Positions 27,864 through 38,630 of a stretch of DNA of 64,000 nt are shown here, one piece after another; the first letter of the stretch is position 1; each line of letters begins with the position of its first letter. The notes under the pieces were generated by a model. It was not told where the DNA came from, made no database searches, and saw nothing but the letters and a program-made list of their open reading frames with translations. The translations under genes were made by a program, and so were the position numbers. Origin of the DNA: a virus. The stretch is taken from the IMG/VR virus record IMGVR_UViG_3300043425_000861; one strand, 5' to 3'.

Positions 27864-28397
27864 TTACTTTTTAATTGAAAACACTTTATTTATTAAAGAT
27901 TCACACGTCTTTTTAATCGCGGATGAAAGAGCTTGTTGATTTATTTTATCACTACCTTCATCGGTTATTAATGTTGATGTCGAGATTTCTGAGCTTGATT
28001 CTTCAGCAACAGCCTCTTTGATTTTCTTACCTTCTTTAGTTGTTAATTTACCTCTCATTACCACCAAAGTTTCTTCTTTGTCTGAATGAAATACTGAGAT
28101 ATTAGTCTTGGTTTTATTAACATCAAAAAATAAGATTTCAGCACTAAAAATCAAATCAGCCTTAGTGATGTCTTCGACAATTAGATAATCCTTATCTTGT
28201 AATATTTCTTGGAAAATGTTTTTAGCACCAAAAGCTAAATTTCGATTATTAGCCATTTTACCAACAATCACTTTGTTCTCTACTTTATCCACGTAGACGG
28301 ATTTTGGGTCCTCAATCGGTTGAAAAATCCTTACCAATAAGCCCACGAATAGGATGTACAGTATCGGTAAGAGCGATACGTTTAGTCTGTTTGTCAT
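27864..28397 (-). CDS. Membrane-anchored envelope protein (first gene of the surface operon)
   Basis: N-terminal TM segment; C-terminal INQQALSSAIKKTC echoes FNQSTISIATKKAL of the CsgG-like ORF. Start placed 3 nt after a TATTTATT box. Confidence 0.65.
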   Translation of the reverse strand: MTNRLNVSLLPILYILFVGLLVRIFQPIEDPKSVYVDKVENKVIVGKMANNRNLAFGAKNIFQEILQDKDYLIVEDITKADLIFSAEILFFDVNKTKTNISVFHSDKEETLVVMRGKLTTKEGKKIKEAVAEESSSEISTSTLITDEGSDKINQQALSSAIKKTCESLINKVFSIKK

Positions 28398-28525
28398 ACT
28401 AATAAATATGACAATTGTCACTATTAGTATAAACTTTATATTATTTTAATTTGGCAATATTGCCGTGTTTTTAGATGTTAAAAAAATATTTTTAAACTTT
28501 TATTGATTATATACATATTTATTAG

Positions 28526-28533
28526 TATCTTTG
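28526..28533 (+). promoter_or_regulatory. Promoter for leader 1 / tRNA array 1
   Basis: TATCTTTG (TAnnTTTG), with a TATTTATT box at 28516-28523 just upstream. Confidence 0.65.
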
Positions 28534-28562
28534 TAAAAAGAAAAAACATTAAATAAAATTCA

Positions 28563-28661
28563 ATGAGACAATTTACACATATTATGTCGTTTACAATCTG
28601 TTCAAAATGGGCGGATGAGCGTTCTATGTCTATATGTCTCGATGATACTGATGTTGGTTAA
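28563..28661 (+). CDS. Leader peptide 1 (32 aa, MRQFTHIMSFTICSKWADERSMSICLDDTDVG), candidate attenuator sensor for tRNA array 1
   Basis: Lies between a promoter and a terminator; codons 6-20 include a codon for every elongator tRNA of array 1. Confidence 0.8.
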   Translation: MRQFTHIMSFTICSKWADERSMSICLDDTDVG

Positions 28662-28684
28662 ATTAGTTTAACTTAAAATATTAG

Positions 28685-28718
28685 AAAACCTCGGGACTTT
28701 AAAATCTCGAGGTTTTTT
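28685..28718 (+). terminator. Attenuator terminator 1
   Basis: AAAACCTCGGGA-CTTTAAAA-TCTCGAGGTTTTTT, 6 nt before tRNA-Ala. Confidence 0.85.
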
Positions 28719-28724
28719 GTTTAT

Positions 28725-28797
28725 GGGCCGGATGTCAATGGCAGACCACCTGATTTGCAATCAGAGTGAAAGGGTTCGATTCCCTACGTGTCCACCA
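28725..28797 (+). tRNA. tRNA-Ala(TGC)
   Basis: Anticodon loop TTTGCAA, G3-U70 pair, encoded CCA. Confidence 0.85.
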
Positions 28798-28803
28798 CCC
28801 CCG

Positions 28804-28854
28804 AGTTTTGGAGCTGGTACCTCCTTTTACCCGAATTGAAATTAAAAACTACCA
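28804..28854 (+). pseudogene. Minimal tRNA-like element / tRNA-Thr(GGT) remnant
   Basis: AGTTTT/AAAACT stem followed by ACCA; GGAG-CTGGTAC-CTCC anticodon-like arm; no D-arm or canonical T-arm. Confidence 0.35.
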
Positions 28855-28859
28855 CAAAT

Positions 28860-28932
28860 TCTTAGGTAACTCAATGGTGAGAGTACCTCGCTGATACCGA
28901 GGAGGTTGGTAGTTCGAATCTACCCCTAAGAA
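28860..28932 (+). tRNA. tRNA-Ile(GAT)
   Basis: CCTCG-CTGATAC-CGAGG; TTCGAAT T-loop. Confidence 0.9.
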
Positions 28933-28937
28933 CATAA

Positions 28938-29010
28938 GGAGATGAAGCTAACTTAGTAGAAGCATCGGACTGAAAATCCGAAGGAGTTGGAGCGTAACCA
29001 ACTATCTCCA
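28938..29010 (+). tRNA. tRNA-Phe(GAA), atypical T-loop
   Basis: TCGGA-CTGAAAA-TCCGA; T-loop AGCGTAA. Confidence 0.85.
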
Positions 29011-29072
29011 CAATAAAGTAAAAAATGCTTAATAAAGTGAACAACTTTATTATACAAAAACAACTTTATTAT

Positions 29073-29146
29073 GACCTCTTAGCTCAGTTGGTTAGAGCAC
29101 CTCACTTTTAATGAGGGAGTCCCGCGTTCGAGTCGCGGAGGGGTCA
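29073..29146 (+). tRNA. tRNA-Lys(TTT)
   Basis: CCTCA-CTTTTAA-TGAGG. Confidence 0.93.
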
Positions 29147-29224
29147 CAATACGAATCAACCGGGTGGCTGAAACCTAACTAGTAGTGGAGAATACCCACA
29201 ACCCGGTCAATGTTCGTATTAACT

Positions 29225-29295
29225 ACGGGTGTAGTTCAATGGTAGAATTATGGTCTCCAAAACCATCGATGGGAGTTCGAATCTCTCCACCCGTG
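29225..29295 (+). tRNA. tRNA-Trp(CCA)
   Basis: ATGGT-CTCCAAA-ACCAT. Confidence 0.93.
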
Positions 29296-29363
29296 CAAAT
29301 TATATCTAAAAACATATAAAAATGAAAAAACAATTTGACAAGCATTAGTTAAACTAATGCAAA

Positions 29364-29561
29364 ATGAAAAACAAAGAAGAACGAGTAAAACAAATGAATT
29401 CAATTTACAATTATTGTTTCATTTGTAATAAAAGAAATGGTAGTTGGTATTATGATTGTCACCCATCAAGTTGGTATGTAAAACGACACGGAAATGGAAA
29501 AATCGTAAGACAAAGAGAGTGTAGAAGTTGGAAACACAACAGAAAAACCCAATGGAAATAA
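29364..29561 (+). CDS. Small basic Cys/Trp-containing protein within tRNA array 1
   Basis: 65 aa with CxxC and a C-terminal WKHNRKTQWK. Confidence 0.6.
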   Translation: MKNKEERVKQMNSIYNYCFICNKRNGSWYYDCHPSSWYVKRHGNGKIVRQRECRSWKHNRKTQWK

Positions 29562-29564
29562 TTT

Positions 29565-29636
29565 GGTCTCTTGGTGTAACGGATAGCACGGAACACTACG
29601 AATGTTTTAGTAAAGGTTCGAGTCCTTTAGAGACCT
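29565..29636 (+). tRNA. tRNA-Arg(ACG)
   Basis: GAACA-CTACGAA-TGTTT. Confidence 0.9.
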
Positions 29637-29695
29637 CTGTTCACAAAATATCGTTGTTCACGGTTCGTGAACAGAGAACAAACGTGAACAAATAA

Positions 29696-29768
29696 GTCAG
29701 GTTGGCCGAGTTGGTTTAGGTGACGGTCTGCAAAACCGTTTACATTGGTTCGAATCCAATACTTGACT
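29696..29768 (+). tRNA. tRNA-Cys(GCA)
   Basis: ACGGT-CTGCAAA-ACCGT; U73 discriminator. Confidence 0.92.
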
Positions 29769-29770
29769 CT

Positions 29771-29846
29771 GTGATAGATGTTCGTATGGTAGGACCTAAG
29801 ATTGTGGCTCTTAGATTAGCGGGTTCGAATCCCGTCTATCACCCCA
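29771..29846 (+). tRNA. tRNA-His(GTG)
   Basis: TAAGA-TTGTGGC-TCTTA; G-1:C73 pair; encoded CCA. Confidence 0.9.
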
Positions 29847-29849
29847 TAT

Positions 29850-29919
29850 TGCGGGAAGGTTAGGTAACCCGCCAGGTCTCATAAGCCTGTGCATCCGAGT
29901 TCGATTCTCGGTCCCGCAA
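29850..29919 (+). tRNA. tRNA-Met(CAT), probably elongator; short D-arm
   Basis: CAGGT-CTCATAA-GCCTG; positions 1 and 72 pair (T-A). Confidence 0.75.
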
Positions 29920-29961
29920 CAAAAAAGATTAAAAATATTTTGTGATTTCACAATTTATTAT

Positions 29962-29969
29962 TATCTTTG
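29962..29969 (+). promoter_or_regulatory. Internal TAnnTTTG promoter before tRNA-fMet
   Basis: TATCTTTG with TTTG at 29939-29942, 19 bp upstream. Confidence 0.55.
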
Positions 29970-29979
29970 TAAAACAAAT

Positions 29980-30051
29980 CGCGAGATAGAGCAGCGGTAG
30001 CTCGGAAGGCTCATAACCTTTAGGTCGGGGGTTCGATTCCCTCTCTCGCAA
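29980..30051 (+). tRNA. Initiator tRNA-fMet(CAT)
   Basis: C1:A72 mismatch; GAAGG-CTCATAA-CCTTT. Confidence 0.88.
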
Positions 30052-30053
30052 CA

Positions 30054-30315
30054 ATAGGTGAAGACTGTGGTGGAAGCCCACGGTATATGAATCCCTAAAA
30101 GCTGTCTTGATTCGCGGTATCAAAGCGGTGCGGGTAGAGTTACATATAAGTCGGGAGTAATTAACCAATTGACGAAAATGTATCCACAGATATGGAGATA
30201 TATCTGTTATGATGTTCAAATGCGAACGAAAAACCTATAACTTATTGAGACTAACTCAACGAGGACTTTGTCAACCAGAGCAATGACTTGGATGGTGCAA
30301 CTTAAGGTGAGTTAG
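30054..30315 (+). ncRNA. Unidentified structured RNA(s) between tRNA-fMet and tRNA-Asp
   Basis: Two modules closed by ATAGGT/ACCTAT (30054-30238) and CTAACTCA/TGAGTTAG (30251-30315), with internal hairpins and raised GC. Confidence 0.5.
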
Positions 30316-30325
30316 AATCAAAATT

Positions 30326-30399
30326 GGAGCGGTAGTTCAGTTGGTTAGAATGCCTGCCTGTCACGCAGGAGGTCGCGGGTTCGAGTCCCGTCCGTTCCG
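30326..30399 (+). tRNA. tRNA-Asp(GTC)
   Basis: CCTGC-CTGTCAC-GCAGG. Confidence 0.95.
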
Positions 30400-30406
30400 C
30401 AAATTT

Positions 30407-30492
30407 GGAGAGATGGCAGAGTTGGTCTATCGCGTCGGTCTTGAAAACCGAAGTTCTGAAAGGGACCGTGGGTTCGAATCCTACTCTCTCCG
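30407..30492 (+). tRNA. tRNA-Ser(TGA)
   Basis: TCGGT-CTTGAAA-ACCGA; long variable arm. Confidence 0.93.
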
Positions 30493-30497
30493 CACTT

Positions 30498-30569
30498 GCT
30501 CGGTTCGACTAGTGGTTAGGTCGCATCCCTTTCACGGATGTAGCACGGGTTCGAATCCCGTACCGAGTA
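30498..30569 (+). tRNA. tRNA-Glu(TTC)
   Basis: CATCC-CTTTCAC-GGATG. Confidence 0.93.
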
Positions 30570-30626
30570 CAAAATAATTTTTAACTATTTACACTTTTTT
30601 ATAATTTGTGTATACTTATTAAAACG

Positions 30627-30734
30627 ATGAAGAATATAAATAACATATTGACGAGTACAAGACCACTTACAAATGGTAATGGGTATGGTGTGCAACCGTT
30701 ATGTTACTTATGTTCGGATATCAATAAAGGATAA
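30627..30734 (+). CDS. Leader peptide 2 (35 aa, MKNINNILTSTRPLTNGNGYGVQPLCYLCSDINKG), candidate attenuator sensor for tRNA array 2
   Basis: Codons 3-25 all fall in codon boxes served by array-2 tRNAs; a terminator follows. Confidence 0.8.
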   Translation: MKNINNILTSTRPLTNGNGYGVQPLCYLCSDINKG

Positions 30735-30761
30735 TAGAAAATTATTAAAACTTATATCGAG

Positions 30762-30791
30762 ACCCGAACACAAAAAATGTTCGGGTTTTTT
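30762..30791 (+). terminator. Attenuator terminator 2
   Basis: ACCCGAACA-CAAAAAA-TGTTCGGGT followed by a T run. Confidence 0.85.
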
Positions 30792-30852
30792 GTTTTGTAA
30801 TTTTTTATCTCTATATTTGAAATAGGTTCTTTGACATATTGGAATAACGAAT

Positions 30853-30936
30853 GCCGGAGTGTTGGAATGGTAGACAAGACAGACTTAAAATCTGTTGAGC
30901 TGAAAGCTCGTGTGGGTTCGAGTCCCATCTCCGGTA
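30853..30936 (+). tRNA. tRNA-Leu(TAA)
   Basis: ACAGA-CTTAAAA-TCTGT; variable arm. Confidence 0.93.
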
Positions 30937-30976
30937 CAAACACTATCGTTCTTTGAAGATAAAGGAGAAACATAAT

Positions 30977-31225
30977 ATGGATATATTATCATTTATTTTA
31001 GGAATGTCTATAGTTGTGGTTATTGCGGTTGCAGTAGTTGCGGTTATAGCCTTTGTTAAGGTGAACAGACTAAACAAAGAGATTGAATCGATTCACACAA
31101 TTTATTCGGGTGAATTTGAAAGGGTTAATAGAGATAGAACAGATTCGGAAAGACAGATTTATTCTGTGTTAGATTCTCGACTTGATAAACTTGAAAGTAA
31201 AATAACAAATAGCCGTAAGGCATAA
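30977..31225 (+). CDS. Single-TM coiled-coil protein inside tRNA array 2
   Basis: MDILSFILGMSIVVVIAVAVVAVIAF...; flanked by an inverted repeat. Confidence 0.7.
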   Translation: MDILSFILGMSIVVVIAVAVVAVIAFVKVNRLNKEIESIHTIYSGEFERVNRDRTDSERQIYSVLDSRLDKLESKITNSRKA

Positions 31226-31263
31226 AAATTAAATAAAACTTTCAAAGACGATAGTGTTAATTT

Positions 31264-31335
31264 GGGCCCATAGTTAAAGGGATATAACTTCTCACTTCTA
31301 ATGAGATGTTCGTGGTTCGAGTCCACGTGGGCCTA
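31264..31335 (+). tRNA. tRNA-Arg(TCT)
   Basis: TCTCA-CTTCTAA-TGAGA. Confidence 0.92.
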
Positions 31336-31336
31336 C

Positions 31337-31476
31337 AAAGATAATGGTCTGATGTTATAATTGTTGTCGACTAACATTATAACTACTTAAACAGACAGCA
31401 CCCTCTGCCGATGCATCGTAAAACTATTACTAAGCAGTTAAGATTGGAACGAAACGGGTATTCCAACATTATCTTT
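31337..31476 (+). ncRNA. Unidentified structured RNA between tRNA-Arg and tRNA-Pro
   Basis: 10-bp closing stem AAAGATAATG/CATTATCTTT; internal GTCTG/CAGAC, GTTATAAT/ATTATAAC and TTGGAA/TTCCAA stems. Confidence 0.5.
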
Positions 31477-31480
31477 ATTT

Positions 31481-31554
31481 TGGGAATTAGCGTAGTCCGG
31501 TATCGCGCTTGGTTTGGGACCAAGAGGTCGTCAGTTCGAATCTGGCATTCCCAA
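31481..31554 (+). tRNA. tRNA-Pro(TGG)
   Basis: CTTGG-TTTGGGA-CCAAG. Confidence 0.92.
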
Positions 31555-31561
31555 CAAAAAT

Positions 31562-31633
31562 GCTGATGTAGCTCAACGGCAGAGCAATTGACTGTTAATC
31601 AATAGGTTGAGATATCGTAATTCTCCATCAGCG
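31562..31633 (+). tRNA. tRNA-Asn(GTT), atypical T-loop
   Basis: ATTGA-CTGTTAA-TCAAT; T-loop ATCGTAA. Confidence 0.87.
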
Positions 31634-31638
31634 CAAAT

Positions 31639-31720
31639 GGCCAAGTGGTGGAACGGTATACACGTATGTTTTAGAAACATATGTCAGAACGGCGTGAGAG
31701 TTCGAATCTCTCCTTGGTCA
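31639..31720 (+). tRNA. tRNA-Leu(TAG)
   Basis: TATGT-TTTAGAA-ACATA; variable arm. Confidence 0.9.
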
Positions 31721-31766
31721 CGGAAAACGGTTTGTATGTATACGTTAGGTTAGGAATGTACAGAAT

Positions 31767-31847
31767 GGGAGTATCGCATAGCGGCAATTGCAGAAGACTG
31801 TAAATCTTCCCTCATCGAGTTCAGTGGTTCGAGTCCACTTACTCCCA
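31767..31847 (+). tRNA. tRNA-Tyr(GTA)
   Basis: GAAGA-CTGTAAA-TCTTC; variable arm. Confidence 0.93.
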
Positions 31848-31858
31848 CAAAATAAAAT

Positions 31859-32395
31859 ATGATGAGAACACTAAAAGAACTTATAAAGGAGATTAAATCT
31901 CCCGAATACAAACAAAAACAAATTGAAGAACATCAAAAGTATCTTGATGAGATATCGATGGATTATCAACTAGGTTACTACGTTGGTGAATATATTGTTA
32001 ATCGTTATCTCCCAACGTTATCGACAGATATGATTCAATCAAGAAATGTTATTGAAGTATCTGAAGAGGATTCTATTGAAAATAATAGGTTAGATAGAGA
32101 ATGGTATTTAACAACGAAGTATCAGAATGATTGGAATGGAGAAGAAGATGGTAATAAAGAAAAGTGGGATTTATACCACCAGCATAATAAAATGTTGGAA
32201 CAAAAATACCTCCCTCAAAAATTAGAATGTCATTTAGGTTTAATTAAGTTTAATGACGAAAAAGAATTTAAAGAAGGGTTACGTTCATCGTTATGGGATT
32301 GTGATATGTGTTCTTATAACATTGATGTTGAAAATATAAAAATTGTAAATGATATGGAAATTGGTTTCACCATCATAACATTTCAATTAGTTTAA
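31859..32395 (+). CDS. Hypothetical protein inside tRNA array 2
   Basis: 178-aa ORF between tRNA-Tyr and tRNA-Ile2. Confidence 0.75.
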   Translation: MMRTLKELIKEIKSPEYKQKQIEEHQKYLDEISMDYQLGYYVGEYIVNRYLPTLSTDMIQSRNVIEVSEEDSIENNRLDREWYLTTKYQNDWNGEEDGNKEKWDLYHQHNKMLEQKYLPQKLECHLGLIKFNDEKEFKEGLRSSLWDCDMCSYNIDVENIKIVNDMEIGFTIITFQLV

Positions 32396-32402
32396 AAAGT
32401 TT

Positions 32403-32476
32403 GGACTTGTAGCTCAGTTGGTTAGAGCACTTCACTCATAATGAATAGGTCCCTGGTTCGAGACCAGGCTGGTCCA
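32403..32476 (+). tRNA. tRNA-Ile2(CAT), lysidine type, reads ATA
   Basis: CTCATAA loop; the GGAC...GGTCCA acceptor and TAGCTCAGTTGGTTAGAGC D-arm resemble bacterial Ile2. Two other CAT tRNAs already cover Met and fMet. Confidence 0.78.
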
Positions 32477-32529
32477 CAACAGGTCGTTCCTCCCCAATAA
32501 AACGTTGGTTGCAACATAATAGCAAAAAC

Positions 32530-32603
32530 AGAAGATTAGCTCAGTTGGTTAGAGCATTTGGTTTACATCCAAAGGGTCATAGGTTCGAATCCTATATCTT
32601 CTA
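32530..32603 (+). tRNA. tRNA-Val(TAC)
   Basis: TTTGG-TTTACAT-CCAAA. Confidence 0.92.
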
Positions 32604-32608
32604 CAATA

Positions 32609-32680
32609 GCTCGGTTAGTTCAACCGGTAGAATAAATGATTTGTAATCATTAGACAACAGTTCGAATCTGTTACTGAGCT
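32609..32680 (+). tRNA. tRNA-Thr(TGT)
   Basis: AATGA-TTTGTAA-TCATT. Confidence 0.9.
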
Positions 32681-32687
32681 CAAACAA

Positions 32688-32760
32688 GCGGATATAGCTC
32701 AATTGGTAGAGTGCGTTCCTTCCAAGTACGAAGTTGCAGGTTCGAGCCCTGTTATCCGCT
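32688..32760 (+). tRNA. tRNA-Gly(TCC)
   Basis: GCGGATA acceptor, CTTCCAA loop, U73 discriminator. Confidence 0.92.
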
Positions 32761-32765
32761 CACAT

Positions 32766-32836
32766 TGTCCTTTAGTATAACGGCAGTACAGGTGGTTTTG
32801 GTCCATCTAGTTGGGGTTCGAATCCCTGAGGGACAA
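32766..32836 (+). tRNA. tRNA-Gln(TTG)
   Basis: GGTGG-TTTTGGT-CCATC; T1-A72 pair. Confidence 0.9.
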
Positions 32837-32843
32837 CAAAACA

Positions 32844-32929
32844 GGAGAGTTACCCAAGTTGGTGAAGGGGGCAGTTTGCTAAACTGTTAGGTCGTTCGCG
32901 GCGCAAGGGTTCGAGTCCCTTACTCTCCG
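32844..32929 (+). tRNA. tRNA-Ser(GCT)
   Basis: GCAGT-TTGCTAA-ACTGT; long variable arm; G73. Confidence 0.92.
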
Positions 32930-32970
32930 CTCAATGTATAAACCAATAATTATAATAAAATGAAAATGTA

Positions 32971-33432
32971 ATGAAAAAATTCAAAACTCTCCACGGAACT
33001 CCAATTCCAGATGTTGTAGAATACATCAGAGAGTACATCTCAACGAGAGAGAATGTAGAAATTCTCATAGGTTCCGACTCACAAAGTTATTCCAATAGAA
33101 AAACAATTTATGGTGTGGTTGTGGCATTATATACAAAAGGAAAGGGCGCTCACGTTTTATGTACACGTGAAACATTACCTATGGAATATAACACAGCATC
33201 AAGATTGTTGGGTGAAGTGTGGAAATCGTTAGAGGTGGCAGAATTTTTGAAAGATAATGGTTTACCAAAACCTACTTGGATTGATATTGATTTAAATCCT
33301 GACCCAAAATATAAATCAAATGCAACGCTTAGACAAGCTGTTGGTTTGGTTGAAGGTATGGGTTATAAAGTTAGATATAAACACGTAGGTGCGATGATGA
33401 CTTACGCAGCAAATCACTTAGTTAGAATCTGA
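32971..33432 (+). CDS. RNase H-like protein (YkuK/DUF458 type)
   Basis: ILIGSDSQ...RLLGEVWKSLEVA...IDIDLN...AANH pattern. Confidence 0.75.
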   Translation: MKKFKTLHGTPIPDVVEYIREYISTRENVEILIGSDSQSYSNRKTIYGVVVALYTKGKGAHVLCTRETLPMEYNTASRLLGEVWKSLEVAEFLKDNGLPKPTWIDIDLNPDPKYKSNATLRQAVGLVEGMGYKVRYKHVGAMMTYAANHLVRI

Positions 33433-33864
33433 CGATTCCTTAGGTCCGTATAAAATAAAATAACTTCCGGTTGGTACTTCAACAAGAGGACCAACCGGTA
33501 ATTCAATTGTTGATAGAATTCTTCTGTATTTTGCGGTTTTGTTTCTATTCATAGAACCAACTCTTAAATCACCATATTCAATTGACCATTGTCTTAGTTT
33601 ATTGGACAATCTTTTCCAATTACGAGCAATGTCAATCATTTGGTGTCCGATGGCCCTATCTCTTTGAGCGTGTGGAGTCGTGAAATCTTCTTCGTCAGAT
33701 GTTAAAGCAACATCATAAAGTGAATCATAGTGAAATGTTTGATTTTTTAGAAGAAACATTTTGTAAGGACCTGCATCTATTCTGTCGATATCTTCCATAC
33801 CCATTGAACGGAGTTTTCTCAACTCATCTTCAATCATTTCAAGAAGTATATCTGTAAAGTTCAT
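33418..33864 (-). CDS. Hypothetical protein
   Basis: 148-aa ORF with TATTTATA upstream. Confidence 0.7.
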   Translation of the reverse strand: MNFTDILLEMIEDELRKLRSMGMEDIDRIDAGPYKMFLLKNQTFHYDSLYDVALTSDEEDFTTPHAQRDRAIGHQMIDIARNWKRLSNKLRQWSIEYGDLRVGSMNRNKTAKYRRILSTIELPVGPLVEVPTGSYFILYGPKESSDSN

Positions 33865-38239: not shown

Positions 38240-38630
38240 GGGGGTGTCTGGTATTGATTTCAGGTATCAGGGATAAATGGCACGTAGTCAGAATTCATCT
38301 ATGACTTAAATCCACGGTGAAAAATTTTAAGCGGCAACGTTTACAACAATATGGAAGTAGCAGGTTTACTTGCAACTTCTAAAGTAGCAGCCTAACTAAG
38401 TTAGACTCCTATCTCGGGTCGGTCAGGACATATACCTAGGAACAGAAGTCCACTGAAACGGGTCACAGGTCAGAGCTCGTTTAAAATAACTCTGAGACCA
38501 GGTTGTTTGTTAGTTTCGTTCCCACTTATATGAAACAAACTATTTGTCGGTTGAGAACCAATTGAATAAACGTGTAGTCATTTATTGTTGAACAGGAAAG
38601 ACACGGGTTCGACTCCCGTCACCTCCACCA
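38240..38630 (+). ncRNA. ssrA: tmRNA
   Basis: GGGGGTG/CACCTCC-ACCA acceptor with G3-U70, T-arm GGGTTCGACTCCC, tag frame 38333-38395 reading GNVYNNMEVAGLLATSKVAA*, and a TATATTTG promoter element at 38213. Confidence 0.93.

Follow-up and report, generated by a model that had tools for sequence, protein, structure and literature searches.

Does the element GTCTCGA, which lies inside a short leader ORF in front of a phage tRNA array, act as the antiterminator strand of an attenuator that opens the array when tRNAs are short? Phage tRNA genes are usually treated as constitutive codon-usage helpers or as spares against tRNA-cleaving defences, and to our knowledge the control of their expression is essentially unknown.

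The leader cassette and the tRNA locus

The stretch of DNA analyzed here (64,000 nt, hereafter the window) is part of a large tailed uncultured phage and encodes a portal protein and a large terminase. It carries 25 tRNA genes on the + strand (28725-32930). The gene upstream of the tRNAs (27864-28421) lies on the opposite strand and is therefore divergent, and the 300-nt gap holds, in order, a promoter, a 32-codon ORF and an intrinsic terminator, with tRNA-Ala(TGC) following 6 nt on. The features of this cassette were as follows.

28503..28533, + strand: leader promoter, TTG, 20-nt spacer and TATCTTTG, Bacteroidota-type -33/-7 boxes, found by motif scan
28559..28570, + strand: region 1, TTCAATGAGACA, which includes the start codon and can pair with 28635-28645 (MFE fold and RNAalifold consensus of class B, the window's class of relatives)
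28563..28661, + strand: leader ORF, ATG at 28563, TAA stop at 28659-28661, 32 codons plus stop
28588..28621, + strand: sensor-region hairpin around the Lys-Trp codons (MFE fold)
28636..28642, + strand: region 2, the putative antiterminator strand GTCTCGA, leader codons 25-27
28656..28673, + strand: GGTTAA, last sense codon and stop, which pairs with TTAACT (28668-28673, spacer hairpin) or, via GGTT, with AACC
28685..28697, + strand: region 3, terminator 5' arm AAAACCTCGGGA plus the first loop base C; target of the putative antiterminator at 28691-28697
28705..28718, + strand: region 4, terminator 3' arm TCTCGAGG, then six T (28713-28718)
28725..28794, + strand: tRNA-Ala(TGC), the first gene proposed to be gated; Rfam tRNA model, 29.7 bits (cut-off 29)

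The boxes of the leader promoter were conserved before every related leader, and transcription probably starts near 28540. A motif scan of the + strand from 28534 to 29939 found no promoter motif. Because the upstream gene is divergent and no promoter motif precedes 29940, the first nine tRNAs can come only from transcripts that cross terminator 1, and the start of tRNA-Ala, 6 nt past the T run, leaves no room for a separate promoter. Two structural criteria for an attenuator were thus met: a short ORF lies directly 3' of the promoter and 5' of the regulated genes, and an intrinsic terminator stands between the ORF and the tRNAs, with a promoter-free 3' side up to 29940.

At 29940-29969 there is a second promoter of the leader 1 type (TTG, 19 nt, TATCTTTG), which ends 10 nt before a tRNA-Met. 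This tRNA has a C1:A72 mismatch, the mark of an initiator tRNA. The initiator tRNA-Met has its own promoter, and stalling during elongation cannot sense an initiator. The Asp, Ser and Glu tRNAs also sit behind the 29940-29969 promoter and can possibly be expressed independently of the leader, which counts against control by an attenuator. The stretch of about 270 nt between the initiator tRNA and tRNA-Asp (30054-30325) showed no notable ORF and no Rfam match at E <= 1. A phage-encoded tmRNA gene was called by ARAGORN at 38240-38630, about 5 kb past the tRNA arrays. The tRNA-Ala(TGC) was atypical, as ARAGORN missed it at default thresholds and found it only at 90% thresholds, and KVP40-like Vibrio phages carry an unannotated stretch 75-77% identical to it.

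Megablast and blastn searches of the region against 50,697 phage records gave no relative of the leader; the matches were tRNAs and the tRNA-Ala-like gene of the KVP40-like phages. The terminase had no close relative among isolates (<30% identity), and the host could therefore not be named. The host probably belongs to the Bacteroidota, an assignment that rests only on the promoter boxes and on the Flavobacterium phages among the distant matches.

The leader ORF begins 30 nt after the -7 box. Among its codons 4-20, every one of the 12 elongator tRNA species in array 1 is represented at least once, and codon 20 is CGT (28620-28622). Relatives were screened with a DNA pattern blind to the presence of an ORF, and of its 101 unique matches 85-86 kept the ORF intact, "intact" meaning that the Trp codon was in frame and that the ORF, 24-39 codons long, closed before the terminator. 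The gaps within the ORF alignment spanned 3 or 6 columns, and the entropy of codon positions 1, 2 and 3 was 0.19, 0.37 and 0.61, respectively, the third position being the most variable. Judged by its conserved frame, in-frame indels and third-position variation, the leader ORF looks translated; translation itself is inferred. The hairpin at 28588-28621 may make RNA polymerase pause and so keep it in step with the ribosome, again an inference. For the equivalent helix in the other class of relatives, class A, three sequences had changes on both sides at three pairs.

Pairing of the leader element with the terminator

Terminator 1 was missed by a simple terminator scan, but direct folding revealed it clearly as a strong structure at 28685-28718 (-18.7 kcal/mol, z = -5.9). 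The first four T of its run pair with AAAA extending the 5' arm. The terminator was kept in the relatives, with compensatory changes.

The first-pass annotation had placed GTCTCGA at 28636-28642 in codons 25-27, and these coordinates were exact. It had also called the element a mimic of TCTCGA, the start of the terminator 3' arm (28705), and the near-copy was borne out. The proposed pairing with TCGGGAC (28691-28697), the loop-side half of the terminator 5' arm, was confirmed as 7 bp with one G-U (G-C, U-A, C-G, U-G, C-G, G-C and A-U), and the spacing of the element, 13 nt after the CGT at codon 20 and 16 nt before the stop, was also correct. In the window, GGTT (28656-28659, the codon GGT and the first T of the stop) can pair with AACC (28687-28690) as well, and with this addition to the 7-bp helix the whole terminator 5' arm can be sequestered. 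A ribosome at the stop codon melts both the spacer hairpin and GGTT:AACC.

Pairing of region 1 with region 2 is a possible anti-antiterminator, which in the predicted fold would hide the AUG as well. In about 55 of 95 cassettes, no other upstream segment paired better with the element than region 1. The 1:2 pairing was invariant in class B, so that it showed no covariation, and a search for a universal 1:2 anti-antiterminator found it in class B only, with no class A equivalent.

In the window alone, the 7-bp match is weak and near chance level (P about 0.03-0.14). Dinucleotide shuffles formed a helix of 7 bp or more with the arm core in 14% of cases when any position in the leader was allowed, and in 3% when the helix had to fall in the 39-nt zone following codon 20. 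For the best leader:arm duplex, the energy was -11.3 kcal/mol, versus -7.3 +/- 1.8 kcal/mol in the shuffles (P = 0.03).

Relatives of the cassette were collected in two ways. Thirty syntenic loci were retrieved from viral contigs using two neighbouring proteins, and further loci were found with two DNA patterns run on viral and metagenome contigs. This gave 31 distinct cassettes from viral contigs and 100 when metagenome contigs were included. The 83 distinct leader peptides among them show that the relatives are not assembly copies of one sequence. The order of promoter, ORF, terminator and tRNA was invariant.

In 95 of 99 cassettes, the segment of the entire leader that gave the best duplex with the 5' arm had its start within codons 23-26. 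When all 31 cassettes were aligned together with MAFFT, the elements of the two classes fell in different columns; therefore, the classes were aligned and counted separately, and an alignment-free arm test was added. Covariation in homologues, which had been named as a check on the pairing, was found in both classes. In the class A alignment, four pairs were changed on both sides, a number reached by 2 of 500 shuffles, while slid controls gave 0-1. For class B, to which the window belongs, the alignment had 98.9% of its cells paired and five cells changed on both sides, which none of 500 shuffles equalled.

The arm test gave a similar picture. The terminator 5' arm occurred as 15 sequence types, and the leader element changed along with the arm. 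Each leader was compared with all 15 types: its own arm was the best in 52 of 99 cassettes and among the top three in 88, and the mean duplex energy was -10.9 kcal/mol with the own arm versus -7.0 kcal/mol with the other arm types. Between L025 (GTCTCAGGGTT with AACCCTGAGAC) and its sister L028 (GTCTCGAGGTT with AACCTCGGGAC), two pairs were changed on both sides. Compensatory changes were also seen between L003 (TCCCGAGG with CCTCGGGA) and L007 (TCTCGAGG with CCTCGAGA), and further examples were L224 (TCCGAGGTCT with AGACCTCGGA) and L159 (GAGGCTT with AAGCCTC).

The peptide encoded over the element was variable (CLDD, SLGD, MSRG, MFRV, IRGL), but the complementarity was retained, which indicates that selection acts on the RNA. 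In many relatives, the antiterminator (-17 to -22 kcal/mol) was equal to or stronger than the terminator (-14 to -17 kcal/mol); the window antiterminator was among the weakest versions. We have little doubt that the pairing between the leader element and the 5' arm is a real, selected interaction. The criterion that the antiterminator pairing and the terminator be mutually exclusive was met by the covariation, the position of the duplex in 95 of 99 cassettes and the compensatory cases.

Several relatives (L001 near 9616, L012 near 10360, L013 near 9492, and L024) carry a tRNA with a CTA anticodon, which ARAGORN called Pyl. It is possibly an amber suppressor and a hint of stop-codon recoding in part of the phage group. 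No tRNA with a CTA anticodon was present in the window.

Ribosome position, leader codons and rival readings

The effect of a ribosome on the choice of structure was modelled by folding with footprint constraints. With the full terminator present, the terminator always won at equilibrium in the window (-15.6 to -18.7 versus -11.3 kcal/mol). The antiterminator can therefore prevail only kinetically, by pairing before the terminator does, and equilibrium folding of the full leader cannot discriminate between the two states. Therefore, the transcript was folded as it is before the 3' arm exists, with a ribosome mask from -15 to +12 around the first base of the A site.

In the window, the modelled antiterminator probability was about 1 with the A site at codons 2-22, apart from a dip at codons 14-15. 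It fell to 0 at codons 23-32 and was 0.04 at the stop codon, the low value at the stop being due to the masking of GGTT and the spacer hairpin. Without a ribosome it was 0.33, because the start-codon segment TTCAATGAGACA competes for the element. The switch between codons 22 and 23 was sharp, and in ten relatives it lay at the equivalent place. The constrained folding that the first-pass annotation had named as a check thus agreed with its claim that a ribosome stalled at or before codon 20 leaves the element exposed. Its other claim, that a ribosome nearing the stop masks the element, agreed with the model in the window but not in four relatives with long peptide tails (L025, L028, L097 and L063), where the modelled antiterminator probability returned to 0.7-1.0 at the last two or three codons and the stop. 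When the ribosome has reached the stop in the window, the -15/+12 footprint falls 2 nt short of the element. The late re-exposure and this 2-nt gap mean that termination under plenty depends on timing or on steric hindrance, both outside the model.

Next to the position of the switch, the codon content of the leader was compared with the tRNAs behind it. The sensor zone held a codon for 93% of the tRNA boxes of the downstream array. The concordance of boxes between leader and array was 0.88 versus 0.68 in permuted arrays, and 0.84 versus 0.70 in a second test; none of 20000 permutations attained the observed concordance in either test. The P values from the permutations overstate independence, since the sequences are related, but several separate rewritings of the leader are visible despite this kinship. 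Arrays of Pro, Trp, Gln, Asn, Thr and Leu tRNAs had leaders written in those amino acids. In phages without Asp and Glu tRNAs, or without Asp and Ser tRNAs, those codons were absent from the sensor zone; L097, which lacks Asp and Glu tRNAs, has ASQR where the window reads ADER. The criterion that the regulatory codons be cognate to the regulated tRNAs and be placed so that a stalled ribosome frees the antiterminator strand was met, all 12 codon boxes of array 1 occurring by codon 20. Two findings count against this reading: each sensor codon is present only once or twice in the leader, and the window leader also has AGA, CAA and ACA codons, whose tRNAs belong to array 2.

The layout of attenuator 2 (30627-30790) matched that of attenuator 1, with an element, GTTCGG at codons 27-29, of unrelated sequence; the position was counted in the 13 relatives that keep the leader 2 ORF. 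A promoter-like motif (TTG, 19 nt, TATATTTG) lies at 30790-30819, right after terminator 2 and before tRNA-Leu(TAA) at 30853. Its -7 box and the following GTTCTTTGACAT were conserved in relatives, and transcription of array 2 may therefore start in a way that bypasses attenuator 2.

Two IMG/VR contigs, L015 and L016, were compared with 28442-29957 of the window. The product of their flanking gene was 99% identical, and they lacked leader 1, terminator 1 and the nine tRNAs from Ala to the elongator Met; about 115 nt of unrelated sequence was followed by the promoter of the initiator tRNA. This joint absence indicates that the attenuator and its tRNAs behave as one module.

On this evidence, we consider it likely that GTCTCGA is the region 2 strand of a ribosome-mediated leader-peptide attenuator that gates tRNA array 1, with shortage leading to read-through. 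This is the polarity that had been proposed from the window alone, and it is now supported by the covariation, the footprint folding and the match of sensor codons to tRNAs. Computation established the anatomy shared by the cassettes, the covarying pairing, the codons at which the switch lies and the codon-tRNA match. Translation of the ORF, stalling of the ribosome, coupling of transcription and translation in the host and the actual change in read-through are inferred, without expression data.

The proposed mechanism would run as follows. Transcription would begin at the host-type promoter (28503-33), and a ribosome would start on the 32-codon leader as RNA polymerase moves ahead. If an aminoacyl-tRNA is scarce at any of codons 2-22, the ribosome would lag, and region 2 would be naked when region 3 (28685-97) leaves the polymerase, so that the 7-bp helix and GGTT:AACC could form. 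With the loop-side part of the 5' arm occupied, the 3' arm could not nucleate the terminator in time, and tRNA-Ala and the following tRNAs would be transcribed. Under fast decoding, the ribosome would stand over codons 23-33, covering region 2 and melting the stop-codon hairpin; the terminator would form, and transcription would end at about 28716-28720. In the absence of a ribosome, region 1 would partly capture region 2, which would also favour termination.

Other explanations were weighed against this one. The leader could be an unrelated small gene with its own terminator, matched to the arm by chance, the tRNAs being made by leak-through. The window alone would allow this, given the 14% of shuffled leaders with a helix of at least 7 bp, but the position of the duplex in 95 of 99 cassettes, the independent compensatory changes and the 15 arm types with matching elements contradict it, as does the parallel design of attenuator 2, and we regard it as scarcely credible. 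A different possibility is that the pairing is selected and not gated by a ribosome, serving a fixed, leaky read-through or the binding of a phage or host factor to the leader RNA. Covariation proves only that the strands pair and not what gates them, the terminator wins at equilibrium in the window, and in some relatives the element becomes accessible once more at the stop codon, all of which would agree with such a role. However, it leaves unexplained why the ORF stays open, with indels that preserve the frame and variation at third codon positions; moreover, the element always lies inside the conserved ORF just past the sensor codons, and the leader codons follow the tRNA content of the array. 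We therefore judge it unlikely, though it cannot be dismissed on covariation.

The late re-exposure of the element in L025, L028, L097 and L063 bears also on the polarity. A fast ribosome might leave the stop early and free region 2, so that plentiful tRNA would give read-through and a positive feedback; in the trp leader, basal read-through is known to arise from release at the stop codon (PMC1183508). In class A, however, the element ends 1-6 nt before the stop and a terminating ribosome would cover it, and in the window the probability at the stop is only 0.04. Furthermore, region 1 can recapture region 2 after release, and the ribosome cannot overtake the polymerase, which after transcribing the stop codon has only some 55 nt to go. 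The opposite polarity is thus very unlikely in our view, and read-through on shortage remains the preferred reading.

Comparison with known systems and implications

Leader-peptide attenuators are known from enterobacteria, in trpL, hisL, leuL, thrL and pheL and in the multivalent ilvGMEDA and ilvBN leaders. The phage cassette resembles them in its promoter-proximal short ORF with regulatory codons, its alternative pairings 2:3 and 3:4 (and 1:2, found in class B only), its intrinsic terminator with a U run, and in that a lagging ribosome would favour 2:3 and read-through. In trp, the decision for antitermination is a race of polymerase and ribosome, and the sensitivity of classical attenuators comes from runs of regulatory codons (PMC1183508). 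As in trp, the phage antiterminator has at most about the strength of the terminator and would win because it forms earlier. Unlike the enterobacterial systems, the phage cassette would regulate tRNAs and not biosynthetic enzymes, and its sensor consists of about 12 codon boxes, each present once or twice, instead of a run for one amino acid. It also differs in being phage-encoded, in having region 2 inside the ORF, and in its Bacteroidota-type promoter boxes, and it shares no sequence similarity with them, judged by the lack of any Rfam leader family match at E <= 1.

Other systems share single traits with the phage leader. The pheST attenuator of E. coli, with its pheM leader, places a synthetase under leader-peptide control and senses one amino acid. 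Like the proposed phage attenuator, it is a leader-peptide attenuator over a component of the translation apparatus for what it senses, but the products behind the phage leader are the tRNAs themselves, and a dozen species would be sensed together. T-box riboswitches bind uncharged tRNA directly and have no ORF. They also read the state of the tRNA pool through a choice of antiterminator or terminator, whereas the phage leader has a conserved reading frame and matched no T-box model. The Bacteroid-trp leader motif of Rfam, which occurs in Bacteroidota, is rich in Trp codons and lies upstream of trp genes. It would show leader-peptide attenuation in the likely host phylum; the window had no match to it.

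An Rfam cmscan of 28000-33500 at E <= 1 gave only tRNAs as matches at or above the gathering score of a family, and nothing overlapping 28541-28722. Among the Rfam leader and T-box families (Trp_leader, His_leader, Leu_leader, Thr_leader, T-box and others), the leader matched none. We conclude that the phage leader would work like the classical attenuators, whose structural criteria it meets, and that it is in no curated RNA family. A literature search found no report of leader-peptide control of tRNA genes. Amino-acid and synthetase genes are known to be under control of this kind. Without the antiterminator, the codon match would be a mere curiosity; with it, the match gains a mechanism.

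It is probable, on balance, that large phages regulate tRNA arrays on demand through such leaders of about 30 codons, in which a panel with one or more codons per tRNA species of the array converts decoding speed into read-through by way of the antiterminator. If this is true, depletion of any of about 12 tRNAs would switch the array on and the products of the array would switch it off; the triggers would be host anticodon nucleases, tRNA turnover in infection or codon mismatch. The design would also be modular, coming and going with its tRNAs, rewritten as the array content changes, and widespread, with at least 100 variants. The covariation over about 100 natural variants provides a ready mutational series, and the leader offers a compact natural sensor design, usable as a decoding-speed reporter for a chosen set of codons. 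For the phages themselves, such a leader, with sensor codons read by the very tRNAs under its control, would serve as a direct, homeostatic monitor of the tRNA pool.
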